Assembly: GCF_001447785.1 (NCBI RefSeq)
Contig: NW_015171504.1
Coordinates: 364,655-428,654 of the forward strand
Source of the DNA: Gekko japonicus
Taxonomy: Eukaryota
DNA length: 64,000 nucleotides
Direction: 5' to 3'
Both the position numbers and the translations under genes were made by a program. Below are positions 14,319 through 35,784 of this stretch, one piece after another; position 1 is the stretch's first letter; each line of letters starts with the position of its first letter. The notes under the pieces were generated by a model that was not told the DNA's origin, did not search any database, and saw only the letters and a list, made by a program, of their open reading frames with translations.

Positions 14319-14450
14319 NNNNNNNNNNNNNNNNNNNNNNNNNNNNNNNNNNNNNNNNNNNNNNNNNNNNNNNNNNNNNNNNNNNNNNNNNNNNNNNNNN
14401 NNNNNNNNNNNNNNNNNNNNNNNNNNNNNNNNNNNNNNNNNNNNNNNNNN
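14319..14450. other. Assembly gap (N)
   Basis: N run flanked by duplicated 188-bp sequence. Confidence 0.99.
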
Positions 14451-24934: not shown

Positions 24935-25687
24935 NNNNNNNNNNNNNNNNNNNNNNNNNNNNNNNNNNNNNNNNNNNNNNNNNNNNNNNNNNNNNNNNNN
25001 NNNNNNNNNNNNNNNNNNNNNNNNNNNNNNNNNNNNNNNNNNNNNNNNNNNNNNNNNNNNNNNNNNNNNNNNNNNNNNNNNNNNNNNNNNNNNNNNNNNN
25101 NNNNNNNNNNNNNNNNNNNNNNNNNNNNNNNNNNNNNNNNNNNNNNNNNNNNNNNNNNNNNNNNNNNNNNNNNNNNNNNNNNNNNNNNNNNNNNNNNNNN
25201 NNNNNNNNNNNNNNNNNNNNNNNNNNNNNNNNNNNNNNNNNNNNNNNNNNNNNNNNNNNNNNNNNNNNNNNNNNNNNNNNNNNNNNNNNNNNNNNNNNNN
25301 NNNNNNNNNNNNNNNNNNNNNNNNNNNNNNNNNNNNNNNNNNNNNNNNNNNNNNNNNNNNNNNNNNNNNNNNNNNNNNNNNNNNNNNNNNNNNNNNNNNN
25401 NNNNNNNNNNNNNNNNNNNNNNNNNNNNNNNNNNNNNNNNNNNNNNNNNNNNNNNNNNNNNNNNNNNNNNNNNNNNNNNNNNNNNNNNNNNNNNNNNNNN
25501 NNNNNNNNNNNNNNNNNNNNNNNNNNNNNNNNNNNNNNNNNNNNNNNNNNNNNNNNNNNNNNNNNNNNNNNNNNNNNNNNNNNNNNNNNNNNNNNNNNNN
25601 NNNNNNNNNNNNNNNNNNNNNNNNNNNNNNNNNNNNNNNNNNNNNNNNNNNNNNNNNNNNNNNNNNNNNNNNNNNNNNNNNNNNNNN
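24935..25687. other. Assembly gap (N)
   Basis: N run. Confidence 0.99.
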
Positions 25688-27875: not shown

Positions 27876-29747
27876 GGTTTAGCTCTTCCCTTCTCTGTCC
27901 ACGGAGACATATTGCAAATAATTTAATTGTGTAATATAACATTTTAATTTTAGATGAATTCCCATTCTTAAGTCAATCCCTATAAACCTTTTATTTATCA
28001 AATATTATTCAGTTTTTAGTTCACTGTTGAACTGCCACGGTTAAGTGTTTTAATGAGATTGATATCATCAGCAACAAACTAGTCAGCTCTTTCAGTTGGT
28101 TATTATAAGGTAACTTCCTCATTTTCTCTGGGGACCCTGGCAGGAAAAAGTGTTTAATAATAAGGAGACTGTGGAAATGGAGATGAGATTTCATAAACAC
28201 ATAGAAATAATTCAGAAGTTCAGTCAAGCAAAAGATTTTGAGAACTTTAACATTTCAATATAATATTTTATTAGATAACTAGAGCAATAAAACTCAAATC
28301 TCTAATACAAAATTTTACTGTTTTGGTAATAAAATGAGCAAGCTTTTAGTAAAATTACTTTCTGGCTTTCCTGAGCCAAGAGCCATTTTCTTTACAATAA
28401 TCAAAGGAGCAACTGTCTATTTACTCTAGAGAATTTCTGACTGTCTCTGGGTGTTTTTAGCCAGTTTGTTGATCATTCCTAAAGCACCTTTACAGACTTA
28501 AAGCTGATTTATTTCTAGCCTTTTTCAAATATTGTGTTCAGGGTGACAATTATGTCTCAAAGCCTACATATAAAATGTAAAATTTAGAACAGACAATCTA
28601 TTGATCTGAGTTCTGTGTTCCAGCCAAAAAGAGATACAAAGTGCACTGCAGTCTCCCTCCCATCTCCTCATTCCCTGCACCATTCCAAAGTGTGTGAACC
28701 TGACTTCCGGTTTACAAAGCAGCAATGGCGGTCACTCTCCCTGAGCTGCGGGAGGGCGAATCGCACACCAGCGGCCTGGAGAGGTGTCACCTCAAGTGAC
28801 ACCCCCGCAGAGCCTTTGCGATAGGCTCCAGGCCAGAGGGTTTTTGAGGGGTAGCCTCTTCGATGACGTAATGCCGGAGAATTGACGCTCCCCTCCACCC
28901 TGATAGTCCAGTCGCTGTGTGGCCTTCGGACACAAGCTGGTTTGACCAGGACAAGCACCGGAGATCGAAAAGAAGATTGTTAAAACGCAGTGTGGTCAGA
29001 GAATCTGACCGACAATGAACATGAGTTCTGAATAAAACGGACTTTAAAAAAAAGCGAATTCCCTGCCCTGTGCGGGAAGAAGCAGATGCAAAGAGGGACG
29101 TCTCTTATGCGAATAATCAATAAACGACACGAAGGGGGAAAAGAGGGGAGGAAAGTAGCACGTGTGTTGTGAGAGACTTAGTTGATTTTTGAAATTGTGA
29201 GCGAGTTTCTCGAGTCGGGAGAAAGCGGTGGGAAGTGTAAACAAATTGTCAGAGGCAGTCAGAGTCCTAAACTGGAAGAGGGTGCAGATGTCATTAAACT
29301 ACTAGCAGATATGCTCAAGCCGGTGATGGAACAACTCGATGGTATTAACCAGCAACTGACTGCGATGAACAAGAACTTTGCATCTCAACAGCTCCAGCTG
29401 AATGAAACGGAAAAGAAAGTGGAGCAGGCTAATGAGAAAATTCAAGAGATGGACACCACAAGTAAGAAGTTGAAGAAAAGACTGGGAGAGGTGGAAACAA
29501 AGCAAAATTTTTTAAAAAACATGTACTGCAACTACAGATGGAAAAAGCCAATATGATTCTCAGGTCCCAGGGAGTTCCTGAAGCAGCAAAAGAAGACCTG
29601 AGGAGTTTGCTTAGTGAGATTATTGCTCCAGTGATAGGCTCTACAGCAGATGAACTAGTAAAAGATATGGAGGTGGCCTATAGGGCATACTCCAATTATA
29701 TTAAAAGAAAAGCCTACCTGGAGAAATTGTGGTCAGATTCTCAAGAA

Positions 29748-30005
29748 AAGCTTATAGATTCTTGGTCAGAAGAAGACGTTTGTCGAAACGGCATCACATT
29801 CCGGAGACCACCATCCTGCCGTCGTTGTTTCCTTCTATCTTATGTAACTGGATTTACAATTTGAATGTATTAGTATCACTTTTGTAATTTTCATATTTAT
29901 AACATTATTGTTATCATTAAAGAAATATTGAGCGCACTTTACACAGTTCCTGTGGCTCTATCTTTTCATGTCTATGGACTGTGACCATATTTGTCTTTGT
30001 ACATA
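29748..30005 (+). mobile_element. 258-bp insertion in ORF1; retrozyme/Penelope-pLTR-like
   Basis: 14-bp TSD CAGATTCTCAAGAA at 29734-29747 and 30006-30019. Removing the insert restores the ORF1 reading IVVRFSRRQTRDA. Confidence 0.8.
29761..29830 (+). ncRNA. Type I hammerhead ribozyme-like fold (core variant CAGAAGA; possibly inactive)
   Basis: CAGAAGA-A, then stem II GAC/GTC (loop GTTT), GAAA, stem III ACGGCA/TGCCGT, and a GUC triplet ending at 29823. Stem I is weak. Confidence 0.6.
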
Positions 30006-30741
30006 CAGATTCTCAAGAAGACAGACCAGAGATGCTATTCTAAAAGCAACATCAGCAACTCCACTGAAAATGGGAAATGTAACGACCAAGACGCTAAAAG
30101 ACATTCCATTTGAAATTCAGCAAAAGAGGAAAAATTACAAAGATTTTATTGCTTTTCTTCAAACTAATGGAATAACGTATAGGTGGGCGATCCCAGAAGG
30201 TGTCATCTTTAAGATCAATGATAAAAGAGAGAAGATAGACTCCATTTCCAAGGCTAAAGAGTTTTTGCGGCGTCAGCTTGGAACAGAGGAAAAGTCTAAG
30301 GAGGAAGAAACAAAATCCAGTGACTCTGCTACCTCTGGAACGGAAAAAGACTCTGCTACAGAAACAGGTGCTGGACCTGCCAAAGTTGTCTACGATTTTA
30401 GAGACAGAAAGCCAAAGGAAAGGCAGAAGGACTTGGAAACTGGCCTTTTGAAGCAAAGAACACGAAGATGATCAGAAAGTTCTCTCATAACAACTAACAT
30501 AATAACATATAAACATGGAAGATGAGCAGGAACTTTACAAGTATATTGTGATACTGACACTTGTGGTACTAACGTTTACACTAACAGAAATAAGATCTCC
30601 TCCTCTTGGGTTTTTAGTTTAGTGTGGTTATCTTTCCTTTATCCCTAGTTGTAGTTCCCCTTCCTAATTTTCTTTGTAGTTTGTAGTTTAATGCAAAATA
30701 AAAAAAAATATCCCTTCGGGGGTTTTAAAAAAAGTGTGTGA

Positions 30742-31393: not shown

Positions 31394-34300
31394 TTTTAAA
31401 AAATTATTTAAAAATATGAAAAATGTACATTAAAAATAACTTCAACAATCCCCCGGGTTCCCCTCACCCCCCCATAATTAAAAAAAGGTTCATATAAGCT
31501 ACTTTATAAAACAACAAGGATCTAACTGAATAAATTACTATAACTACACTCCACAGAACAGACTGTAGACCTAACATAAGGCTAATCAGAGATTTATCAG
31601 GTCCAAATTATCAGCTGTAGCGGGAATCACAGCTTGCGACTTCAGGTAGTCTAGGATTGGTGCCCAAGTATGAAACAGTCGTGATTTATAGGTGGTATGT
31701 GTTTCTCGTAGGATTTTATCAGTCAATTTAGCAATTATAAAGCAGTCCCATATCCTATTTTGCCAAGCTGAGATAGAGGGATCCCTACTATCCTTCCACT
31801 TAGCCGCGATTTCCATCTTTGCTAAGGCAAGTAGAGTCAGGACTATTTGTTTGTTTGAAGATTGTAAAATAGATTCAAGTGTTTTATGAAGTAATAATGC
31901 TTCAGGTGTTTCCGGTAGATTGAGACCTGTTATATCTTGGATGGCAGCACTAATAAGTACCCAAAAGCGCCTGACTCTAGGGCATGACCACCAACAATGG
32001 AGATATCCTGCAGTCCTACCACATCCCTTCCAACATAAATTATTGTTCGTCTTGTAAATATGTGCCAGTCGCGTTGGAGTCAAATACCATCGGTTAATCA
32101 ATTTCAGATATTGTAGTTGGAGTGGCAGAAATTTAATATATCTTGTGGTAAAGGCACACATTGAGTCCCAATCCTGTTCTGTTGAAGACATCATACAGTC
32201 CGAATCCCATTTCTTCATCGTACTAATCATATATTTATTATCCATCCGAATTAAAAGTTGATATATTATAGATAGTTTATGTCTCAGCGTAGCACTGTCC
32301 CGAGCTAATACGACCTCGAAACCTGTTTCTTTCTCCTTCAAATCAGTTTTGAAATTCCTTTCGGAAAATTTGGAGTGCAGTTGAAAGTAATGGATCCATG
32401 AGATCTTTTGATCAATTAAAGTCTCAAGGTCTTGCTTTGGCAACAGTTCACCTTCATGTAGTATATCTTTGATTAAATAAAGTCCCTGACTTCTCCATTT
32501 TTTAATTATATTTTCTAGATCTTCTGGAAACCAACCATGTCCAGTTAGAGTCGACAATGGAGAAAATTTACGTACTAGACCAGTCTTCCATTTGTCCCAT
32601 ATACGGAGAGTGGTCTGCAGATAAATATTAGNNNNNNNNNNNNNNNNNNNNNNNNNNNNNNNNNNNNNNNNNNNNNNNNNNNNNNNNNNNNNNNNNNNNN
32701 NNNNNNNNNNNNNNNNNNNNNNNNNNNNNNNNNNNNNNNNNNNNNNNNNNNNNNNNNNNNNNNNNNNNNNNNNNNNNNNNNNNNNNNNNNNNNNNNNNNN
32801 NNNNNNNNNNNNNNNNNNNNNNNNNNNNNNNNNNNNNNNNNNNNNNNNNNNNNNNNNNNNNNNNNNNNNNNNNNNNNNNNNNNNNNNNNNNNNNNNNNNN
32901 NNNNNNNNNNNNNNNNNNNNNNNNNNNNNNNNNNNNNNNNNNNNNNNNNNNNNNNNNNNNNNNNNNNNNNNNNNNNNNNNNNNNNNNNNNNNNNNNNNNN
33001 NNNNNNNNNNNNNNNNNNNNNNNNNNNNNNNNNNNNNNNNNNNNNNNNNNNNNNNNNNNNNNNNNNNGTTATTTAAGTCTAATGGGATCCATACACCCAA
33101 GAGACGCCATTTATGTTTGACCCATTGGAGGGTAAAAATGTTTCGTAAGGCCTGTCTATCAGTTTCCTGTAAATGTATCGGATGAACTTCCGTCTTATCA
33201 CGGTTGACTTTCAGGCCTGAAATTGTCGCAAATGCATGCAATATATTCTGAACATGTTGTAATGAAGTTTCCGGCTTGGTTATATAGAGTACCGCATCAT
33301 CCGCGAATAAGCTGATCTTATGTTCGCTTGAGCCTATCTGCACTCCCCGGATGTTGTTTTCATTCCGTAACCAATTAGCTAGCTGTTCAATACATATTGC
33401 AAACAGCAGAGGGGATAGAGGACACCCCTGTCTTGTGCCTCTCAGTATCGAGATAGATTGAGACATATGATTATTTATCCTTATCTTTGCTTCAGGTCTA
33501 TAATAAAGCGAATCAATGGCCATCATAAAGGCAGGTCCGAAGTTCATGGATCGAAGAAGATTTTTAAGGTAAGTGAAGCTGATAGAGTCAAATGCTTTCT
33601 CAAAATCGAGAGCCATAACTAGGGCTTTGATCTTTCCCAATTGGCAATGTCGTATAATATTCAATGTACGTCTAATATTGTTCGCCATCGAGCGACCCGG
33701 GATAAATCCCGTCTGATCTGGGGTTATATAAGAGGTGATAATGTTTTGCATGCGTTTCGATAAGATGGTCGTAAATATCTTCAAATCGACATTGAGTAGT
33801 GCGATTGGTCTATAAGATGCACATAATGTCTTATCTTTTGCAGATTTCAAGATAGGTGCCAGTATCGCTTCCCTCCAAGATACAGGCATATCACCGTGTT
33901 CCAATATCCGGTTAAAGGTATCTTCCAAAACTGGAATGAGAACATCTTTGAAAGCTTTAAAAAATTCGGCTGGGTAGCCGTCGGGACCTGCCGTTTTATT
34001 ATTCTTAAGATTCTGTATAGCTTCCTGTATTTCCTCAGTTGTAATAAATGCATCCATATAGTTTCTATGTTCTTCCGTTAATGTTTTAAAGAATAAACTA
34101 AATTTATCAAAGAACATATGTGTGTGTGCTATTGGTTGCACATCAGGAGCATATAGAGAACCATAATAATCCTCGAAAGAATGCAAGATGTCCTTTATAT
34201 CACCCGTGAGTTTTCCATTTTTATTTATAAAGTCAATTACATTCGATGCCTTCTTCTTTTTCACCCTCCATGCTAACAATCTGGTCGCCCTTGGAGATTT

Positions 34301-35290
34301 TTGCCAATGTGTCTGTTTAAGATAAATCAGGTTTTGTTTGATTTTATCAACTTCAAAGGACTCAAGCTCCTTTTGGGTTTTTAATAGGAGTTGGTAAGTG
34401 CTGCGGCATCCCGTCGCCTTATGATGTCTTTCGAGAGCCTGAATCCTAGTAGTTATATCCAGCCTTTTTTGTTCTCTCAATTTTTTCAAACGAGACGTAA
34501 GCGAAATTAATGATCCACGTAAAGTAGCTTTCAGGGCGTCCCATTTGACAGACATTGTACAATCAGTATTTTCATGATTGTCGAGATACTCTTGTATGAG
34601 TTTAGGGACCTCCTGTTTCAGACAGTCCGAGTGTATTACATTCCTGTTCAGGACCCAATGATAAGGAGTCCGAACGTTATTGGCCATGACAAAGTCACAG
34701 GTGACCCAGCAGTGGTCTGTCATTGTTTTAAGGCCAATATCAGATCTAAATATCTTTTGGGCATCCCGTTTAAGTGTTAGTATATAATCTAGTCTTGTAT
34801 GGACATTATATTTAGCAGAGAAGTACGTATAATCACGAGCCTCGGGGTTGACATGTCTCCAACAGTCAAGGAATCCATATTTCTCGAATAGGGAGTACAA
34901 TTTCGTGTAGGAGTCATCAGTAAACGTTACCCGGGAATTATGTCGATATGTTCGATCCACTCTCAAATTTGAGATATAATTAAAATCACCGGCAAGTAGC
35001 AAAGTACCTTCACAAAATACACTTATTTTATAGAATATCTCATCTAAAAATTTAATTTGGCCTTTATTTGGTGCATAAATCGATACTATAGTTACCATTT
35101 CCTTGTCTATATAGCCTTTTACCATAACATATCTACCTTCCGGATCCTTACAGGTCTCTTTCTCCTGAAAATTTATATTTTTACATATCAATACTGCTGT
35201 CCCTCTAGCCTTGGAGGTGCCTCCCGCCAAAAATTGATAAGGAAAAGAACTGACCAAATCCCTATACAGAGAATCTCTCCACATGTTGAC
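31394..35290 (-). mobile_element. L1-clade LINE, 5'-truncated inside the EN domain; near-complete ORF2 (EN-RT-CCHC) with 3'UTR
   Basis: EN motifs IYAPN, GDFN, RLDY, TDH. RT motifs YRPIALLN, LDFEKAFD, GTRQGCPLSPLLF, LFADD. CCHC motif CWKGC...HCWWSC. No stops in the sequenced parts, though the ORF spans the N gap. Confidence 0.93.
32632..33067. other. Assembly gap (N) inside L1 ORF2
   Basis: N run. Confidence 0.99.
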
Positions 35291-35784
35291 CGAGCATGTA
35301 AGGGAGGAAAGAAGGCATGAGAATCCTGGTCCTCCCCCGCCACCAGGGATTCCTGGCTTGTGACCATGGAGTCTACACACAGAGTTAGTGTCTGTGTGTA
35401 CACTCCCCCCTCTTGATTGGCAGCCTTCAGAAAGCAGTGTTCTTGATGATGGGAAGGGAGTGTATGCATGGACACTTGGTCCACATGTTCACACCAGGCA
35501 GATGATCCAGTGAACACAGAGAGGCATGGGTTGAGGCCAGTGCACTCATGCCCACGTACCTTCCCACATGTTCAGTCAATTAACAGATGGGTAGACGGCT
35601 TATGTCTCGTCCACTTTTGGGATCCATCTGTTTTTGCAGCTGTTACCCTGTAATTATAAGGAGGGTCTAGCTGGCCCATCCTCTGAAAGAAAGACAGTCT
35701 CCTTTCATCTTCATATGCCTCAGGATGCTTGCTACGTGCATGTTAGTAACTTGCACTATTCTTGCAAACTTAGTTAGTGCCTAG

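Follow-up and report, generated by a model that had tools for sequence, protein, structure and literature searches.

The window, by which we mean the whole 64,000-nt stretch of the Gekko japonicus genome that was analysed (contig NW_015171504.1, positions 364,655 to 428,654), contains the frameshifted ORF1 of an L1-type LINE (positions 29182..30471 of the window, + strand), which is split by a 258-bp insert (29748-30005). The insert is flanked by two identical copies of the 14-mer CAGATTCTCAAGAA (29734..29747 and 30006..30019, both on the + strand), as reported in the preliminary description of this locus, and the duplication now has its empty-site counterpart: apart from the window's own copy, 11 copies of the host L1 were retrieved, and the 14-mer occurs once in every one of them, which identifies it as a true target-site duplication (TSD). 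At the position of the junction, the empty site in these copies reads AAGAAG. The stretch of ORF1 holding the insert is presumably the RRM. In a PDB search, a sister ORF1, taken whole, aligned weakly with human L1 ORF1p (2ykp, E 0.003), and the insertion point lies in the region aligned to 'HIIVRFTKVEMKE' of this protein, within the 'IVVRFSRRQTRDAIL' stretch. Pfam recognized neither the pieces of the L1 ORF1 nor the one whole sister ORF1. The host ORF1 carries an additional frameshift upstream of the insert. Elsewhere in the window, a 1300-codon stop-to-stop frame with a stretch of N inside (31586-35488, - strand) yielded Exo_endo_phos and RVT_1 matches typical of an L1/Tx1-type ORF2; given its orientation opposite to that of the insert-bearing ORF1, this frame belongs to a separate LINE. 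The runs of N in the window (14319-14450, 24935-25687 and 32632-33067) do not overlap the insert or its target.

The genome search with the insert produced 958 first-look candidates, of which 40 were scored, with 93-96% identity for full-length matches among those scored. This abundance bears out the view that the insert is a retrotransposed, hammerhead-like and Penelope-connected repeat, and, as had also been noted, its sequence shows neither a poly(A) nor a TIR nor a tRNA head. All 29 other fetched loci share sequence upstream of the 5' end of the insert, none of which is shared by the window copy, and downstream of its 3' end they share at most a few bases. The longest copies (L016 and others) run into an ORF that encodes a C-x2-C-x2-C linker and a GIY-YIG-type end, 'LRYIGES...RILEY'. 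The cysteine linker (CX2-5CxxC) preceding the endonuclease in L016, HFRCLRCAACPLS, is the same motif as described for Penelope-like elements (PLEs) in PMC8557442. A sister copy with 83% identity to the insert (L113) matched both RVT_1 (E 8e-10) and GIY-YIG (E 2e-5), and the piece from the insert's own family (hereafter family A) had, on its own, no Pfam match. Thus, the endonuclease and the ORF start were seen in family A itself and the reverse transcriptase (RT) in a sister family 83-86% identical to it; none of the loci fetched held an intact family A element over its full length. Locus L160 spans the start of the pseudo-LTR (pLTR), the insert sequence and the start of the ORF, with the ATG 18 bases past the last base of the window copy. 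The pLTR accordingly occurs both after the ORF (L016 and others) and before the ORF start (L160), in separate copies and never both in one.

The 3' ends of the copies cluster at reference positions of about 983 and 1013-1022, some 35 bases apart, and the second matches found within 65 loci sit on the opposite strand, as inverted partners. Together, the inverted partners and the tail reproduce the pLTR/tail/inverted-partner pattern of endonuclease-containing (EN+) PLEs, as shown in PMC8557442 (Fig. 2) and PMC3846280. On this basis, the insert is divided into AAG at 29748..29750 (+), likely the 3' splice site of pLTR intron 2, represented by the intron's final three bases, and the point of 5' truncation of an intron-retaining template, as judged from the junctions of spliced and retaining copies; the third and last exon of the pLTR, or 5' UTR, of a Neptune-type PLE at 29751..29969 (+; the right end is approximate, with inverted partner copies stopping at insert position 219-223); and a tail of about 36 bp at 29970..30005 (+), delimited by the 3'-end clusters of copies and the continuation in L160. 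TSDs of 9-16 bp were found at 18 of 60 family loci, compared with 1 of 293 control pairs, and 7 of the 18 were 14 bp long; gaps, nested inserts and rough boundaries are possible causes of the lack of a duplication of at least 9 bp at the remaining 42. The window copy diverges by 2.9% from the family majority, close to the family mean of 2.6%. We conclude, with a probability of about 0.93, that the insert is a 5'-truncated non-coding end piece, consisting of the last pLTR exon and the tail, of a Neptune-type Penelope-like retrotransposon, likely placed in the L1 ORF1 by the element's own endonuclease and RT. The putative Neptune assignment is based on the sequence of the cysteine linker, and the element tree holds only elements of this genome. 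As the window copy contains no transcription start, it is predicted to have been dead on arrival; taken by itself, the locus is unremarkable debris from an element type that is already known.

Described Neptune EN+ PLEs (PMC8557442, PMC3846280) are alike in combining an RT with a C-terminal GIY-YIG domain and a cysteine linker, in carrying a pLTR hammerhead near the 3' end followed by a 30-40 bp tail, in their inverted 5' partners, target duplications and 5' truncation, and in insertion into another non-LTR element. The gecko family differs from them in its two pLTR introns, with about half of the sampled copies spliced, and in its duplications of 9-16 bp, with no (TA)n target at the window site. 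Two further observations concern the surroundings of such elements in this genome. At L016:1400-1500 and L031:2329-2409, a family A copy lies in or beside the pLTR of another Neptune family with a UGGAUGA core, and this motif flanks the family A copy on both sides, in opposite orientations. In addition, paired endonuclease matches that point away from each other and have long open frames (776-1298 aa) occur at C11202:286719-293048, C8953:966402-972122 and C4962:258056-262023; they are likely recent, inverted and nearly complete insertions from a more distant Neptune family.

The preliminary description had instead taken the insert for a retrozyme-like monomer, that is, a stand-alone non-LTR retrozyme whose 258-nt unit would be freed by hammerhead cutting, circularized and moved in trans. 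Animal non-LTR retrozymes are likewise short, AT-rich, non-coding and equipped with a type I motif, and the size (150-450 bp), low GC content and motif of the insert fit them (PMC7229834); moreover, retrozymes are related to, and derive from, PLE pLTRs (bioRxiv 10.64898/2026.07.22.740005), and the insert has many genomic copies. Against this, no head-to-tail copies, such as the proposed check for tandem units called for, occur in any of the 65 loci, and close neighbours among the 100 listed pattern matches lie on opposite strands. The 5' ends vary and join the pLTR exons, introns and ORF, in continuity with a PLE. The unit terminates at the intron end and at the tail, some 70 and 185 bases away from the cut site, with ends that are not set by the ribozyme, and the core is not the canonical CUGANGA. 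We therefore consider a mobile monomer very improbable. What the preliminary description named as evidence against its own reading is largely what was found; it had, for instance, reserved the term ordinary pLTR fragment for copies always attached to the ORF, and long copies do join the ORF, but many others are short spliced pLTRs.

Ahead of the hammerhead-like motif, the family pLTR contains two GT-AG introns of 102 and 92 bp, the second of which ends 16 bases 5' of the motif core. The junction with exon 3 reads ...GTATAAG|CTTATAG in intron-retaining copies and ...CATC(C/T)A|CTTATAG in spliced ones, and the two introns are present together or absent together. Among 30 motif-selected copies, chosen by a pattern lying outside the intron sequence, 16 were spliced, 11 retained the introns and 3 were of other kinds. 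All ORF-attached copies kept the introns: intron 2 in 14 of 14 distinct copies and intron 1 in 13 of 13 that were readable. Spliced copies never extend upstream of reference position 438, which coincides with the start of the unspliced locus L160 and is, for this reason, likely the transcription start; where the introns are retained, this predicted start precedes the 5' end of the insert sequence by about 325 bases. In the D. virilis element, an intron ends at helix I (PMC4209133), just as the intron here ends immediately 5' of helix I. Spliced PLE copies are, as far as we could find in the open-access literature, not described.

Spliced joints were also found in RNA. Reads crossing the GT..AG joints 1 and 2 numbered 8 and 14 in X17 and 4 and 4 in X18, and three reads in X16 contained a variant of the second joint; these three raw runs come from one study, most of the reads are 90-99% alike, and they could have come from spliced genomic copies. 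Read depth in the same three runs was about 10-60 over the pLTR and 0-2 at the ORF start. At L020:1752, one copy is transcribed beyond the tail into the same flank in all three runs (10, 16 and 8 reads), and is probably a passenger in a host transcript. In families C, D and E, two upstream forms switch after an AAG located 13-15 bases before the core (assigned by eye, with the donors unmapped), and the AAG form was present in 4 of 25, 4 of 25 and 3 of 7 loci, respectively. An apparent alternative splice in L118 was rejected, its joint being a run of N, and a piece comprising spliced exons 1-2 at L006 (1091-1219 and 1370-1757) forms a direct repeat upstream of a spliced copy.

Because the window copy begins with AAG, the last three bases of the intron, its template was likely unspliced. 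As an alternative, the copy could have come from a short spliced pLTR transcript, cut exactly at the start of exon 3, slippage on the target end having supplied the AAG; three bases are short enough that they could be such a slip-copy. Spliced copies are common (16 of the 30 motif-selected ones), the empty site reads AAGAAG at the junction, and L144 likewise starts at AAG. However, the AAG corresponds exactly to the final three bases of the intron, and the alternative requires two coincidences, namely truncation precisely at an exon boundary and a 3-base addition, which makes it unlikely. Of 64 motifs, two (L001 and L144) are truncated exactly at the final AAG of the intron, possibly a weak hot spot at the 3' splice site.

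With an unspliced template, the insertion could have proceeded as follows. The element's endonuclease would cut the two target strands 14 bases apart, and reverse transcription would start inside the RNA, at the tail, perhaps aided by a target-template match, given that the right TSD copy starts with CAGATT and the continuing element reads CTGATT (5 of 6 bases). Such an internal start has been shown in vitro for the anole Poseidon element (PMC11167929). Copying would then halt after 258 bases, three bases into the unspliced intron, and repair would generate the 14-bp duplication. By the same scheme, short spliced copies would result when priming takes place at the tail that belongs to the transcript's 5' end, and copies attached to the ORF would derive from the downstream, unspliced pLTR. 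The Anolis element, PAc, shares with the gecko family a tail produced by internal RT start and a sense RNA template, and its ribozyme, weak alone and assisted by protein, is a further likeness that we propose. PAc belongs to a different clade, its ATG lies inside the ribozyme and its priming occurs 111-118 nt into the ORF (PMC11167929), whereas the common 3' ends found here lie upstream of the ATG.

The type I hammerhead-like motif of the window copy (29763..29827, +) consists of the 5' strand of stem I (29763-66), the core C3-A4-G5-A6-A7-G8-A9 (CAGAAGA, 29767-73), an unpaired A (29774), stem II at 29775-84 (GAC/GTC, 29775-77/29782-84), GAAA at 29785-88 and stem III from 29788 (ACGGCA/TGCCGT). 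All these parts were present where the preliminary description had placed them, along with a GTC triplet at 29821-23. Loop III contains the self-complementary TCCGGA (29800..29805, +), predicted to form a dimer (kissing) contact. There are two candidate cut triplets on the + strand. The first (29813..29815) holds the position aligned across families and is GTC in 26 of 29 other copies; in the window copy a G to A change at 29813 turns it into ATC and breaks stem III in that register. The second (29821..29823) is the GTC singled out previously, likely arose by a short duplication in families A and B, and is associated with a stem III of 5-6 bp. Part of what had been described is private to this copy: a C to T change at 29817 adds the sixth stem III pair at site 2, but C is found here in 27 of 29 other copies, and the ATTAAA hexamer is present but is a minority state in the family, A29916 being G in 22 of 29 other copies.

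The two GTC triplets look like a duplication, and site 2 pairs better than site 1: in families A and B, site 1 is left without a stem I (0 bp in the strict register), and site 2 has a stem I of four G-U wobbles and a 5-bp stem III. In the predicted lowest-energy fold, the first bases of the core would be hidden. A relaxed hammerhead descriptor, written post hoc, had no match in 5000 Markov shuffles and a single one in 638 tiles of the window. A search with Rfam, suggested earlier as a check, detected no hammerhead, either in the stretch of the window at E<=10 or among 10 loci of the family at E<=5; microRNA matches returned by Rfam were dismissed, as they correspond to the inverted-repeat junction.

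The A at position 4 had been regarded as a change particular to this copy. It is instead family-wide: each of the 100 motifs listed, out of 120 exact matches, has A at position 4, and a pattern requiring Y3-U4 matched none. The same base is present in all motifs of family A (43 of 43) and family B (21 of 21), 64 of 64 together, and a restored CUGANGA and a paired stem I, which the preliminary description had proposed to look for, were both missing from the family consensus. With positions 3-4 left free in the pattern, family C contained CAG 21 and CGG 4 times (25 loci of 150 matches), family D contained CGG 20, TGG 2 and CAG 2 times, with one truncated motif (25 loci of 151 matches), and all 7 motifs of family E were TGG. 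The rest of the hammerhead core (C3 U4 G5 A6 N7 G8 A9 / G12 A13 A14 / A15.1-U16.1 / H17) is kept, with the sole exception of U4. In a tree of 39 element proteins, one branch with a support of 100/100 parts 12 rows with U4 from 27 with a purine, each row being labelled from one copy and the tree being rooted at the midpoint and restricted to elements of this genome with no outside reference. Summed over their branches, the purine-4 elements have accumulated about 1.4 changes per protein column. At the level of sequence, the purine is a fixed trait of a whole subclade.

Conservation around the purine is extensive. In 30 aligned motifs, G5, A6, A9 and GAAA are invariant, G10.1-C11.1 and A15.1-U16.1 are each present in 28, and the pair between positions 3 and 8 is C-G in 17, U-A in 9, U-G in 3 and other in 1; family B usually combines U3 with G8 (20 of 21 motifs). 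Pairing reaches 79% in stems II and III, where compensatory changes occur, and 59% of cells in stem I, the weakest helix, the shuffle control for covariation ignoring the relatedness of the motifs. The TCCGGA palindrome in loop III is found in most motifs of family A (38 of 43) and family B (18 of 21), and distant families have CTCGAG at the same place, with 92.5% of cells self-complementary. Stem I is a perfect 6 bp in some purine-4 families (L083) and wobble-only in family A. Cores of the form CUGACGA or UUGANAA occur in further families of the same genome. L108 and L112 have the canonical CUGACGA, and L091, L093 and L099-L110 are Neptune families with U3-A8 covariation, a 6-bp stem III and a CTCGAG loop palindrome; these serve as natural controls for the purine-4 motif. 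Two other explanations of the purine were rejected: the stem I register in L083 and L058 makes it a substitution rather than an insertion, and CAG|AAG is not a splice acceptor that would rebuild CUGANGA, with no such joint in RNA reads and no switch of sequence there in 57 family C, D and E motifs, except for one truncation junction.

The pLTR hammerheads of PLEs described by Cervera and de la Pena (2014, PMC4209133) share with these motifs the type I order, an unpaired base between A9 and G10.1, the G10.1-C11.1 pair, a loop III palindrome and a short helix I. The representatives in Fig. S3 of that report all contain U4 (CUGA or UUGA, the core that the descriptor required) and a minimal helix III, in contrast to the A or G at position 4, the stem III of 4-6 bp, loop III of 15-23 nt and stem II of 3 bp observed here. 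In the open-access literature, we found no description of a purine-4 PLE hammerhead.

Whether such motifs cut is a matter on which the evidence is divided. We put it slightly below even odds that the motif of the active parent is a slow, protein-assisted, dimer-forming hammerhead that tolerates purine-4 and is predicted to cut; that it is a mere relic is improbable. Comparably close to an even chance is the possibility that the purine-4 motif has ceased to cut and is retained because its RNA serves the element's protein as a fold or a signal for dimer formation, while CpG decay makes positions 3-4 drift (CG to CA, UG, UA). The states found at these positions, CG, CA, UG and UA, are those expected from such decay, and stem I is weak or absent. 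U4 is known to contact the A6-N7 phosphate, with U4C lowering activity (PMC3088659), and the anole element inserted in vitro without the need for hammerhead cutting (PMC11167929). Yet the same reports describe core variants of low naked activity that can function in vivo (PMC3088659) and an anole hammerhead that cuts only with protein (PMC11167929). RNA-seq showed no pile-up of read ends at either cut site in the three runs, from libraries not built to show it. The lack of Rfam matches, the hidden core bases in the lowest-energy fold and the U3.G8 of family B also weigh against cutting. Loss of cutting, in turn, is opposed by the retention of G8, G12 and the N-U-H site together with the helices. 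These positions matter for hammerhead chemistry, and cutting is favoured by the fact that the catalytic positions, like the cut site, have persisted through about 1.4 protein changes per column.

Taken together, we tentatively propose, at odds somewhat worse than even, that a vertebrate Neptune branch has a hammerhead with a purine in place of the 'invariant' U4 and with position 3 drifting between C and U against a fixed G8, which would dimerize via a six-base palindrome in a long loop III, cut only with the element's protein and escape both Rfam and CUGANGA descriptors. These families would also write many spliced pLTR copies, with spliced sense RNA as a routine template, and their introns would survive only because ORF-bearing copies come from the unspliced downstream pLTR.

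Should purine-4 motifs cut, the written consensus of the hammerhead core is too narrow and whole PLE branches are missed by searches that demand CUGANGA, a point of relevance to reported PLE clades 'lacking' hammerheads. Should they not cut, they set the structural role of the motif apart from its catalysis, the very question that PLE hammerheads pose. This genome offers matched natural controls in its C3-U4-G8, U3-U4-A8 and purine-4 families. Finally, intron retention in PLE copies was once attributed to an antisense template (PMC3846280); the opposition between short spliced copies and always-unspliced ORF-attached ones is a countable genomic test that favours sense templates and internal priming.
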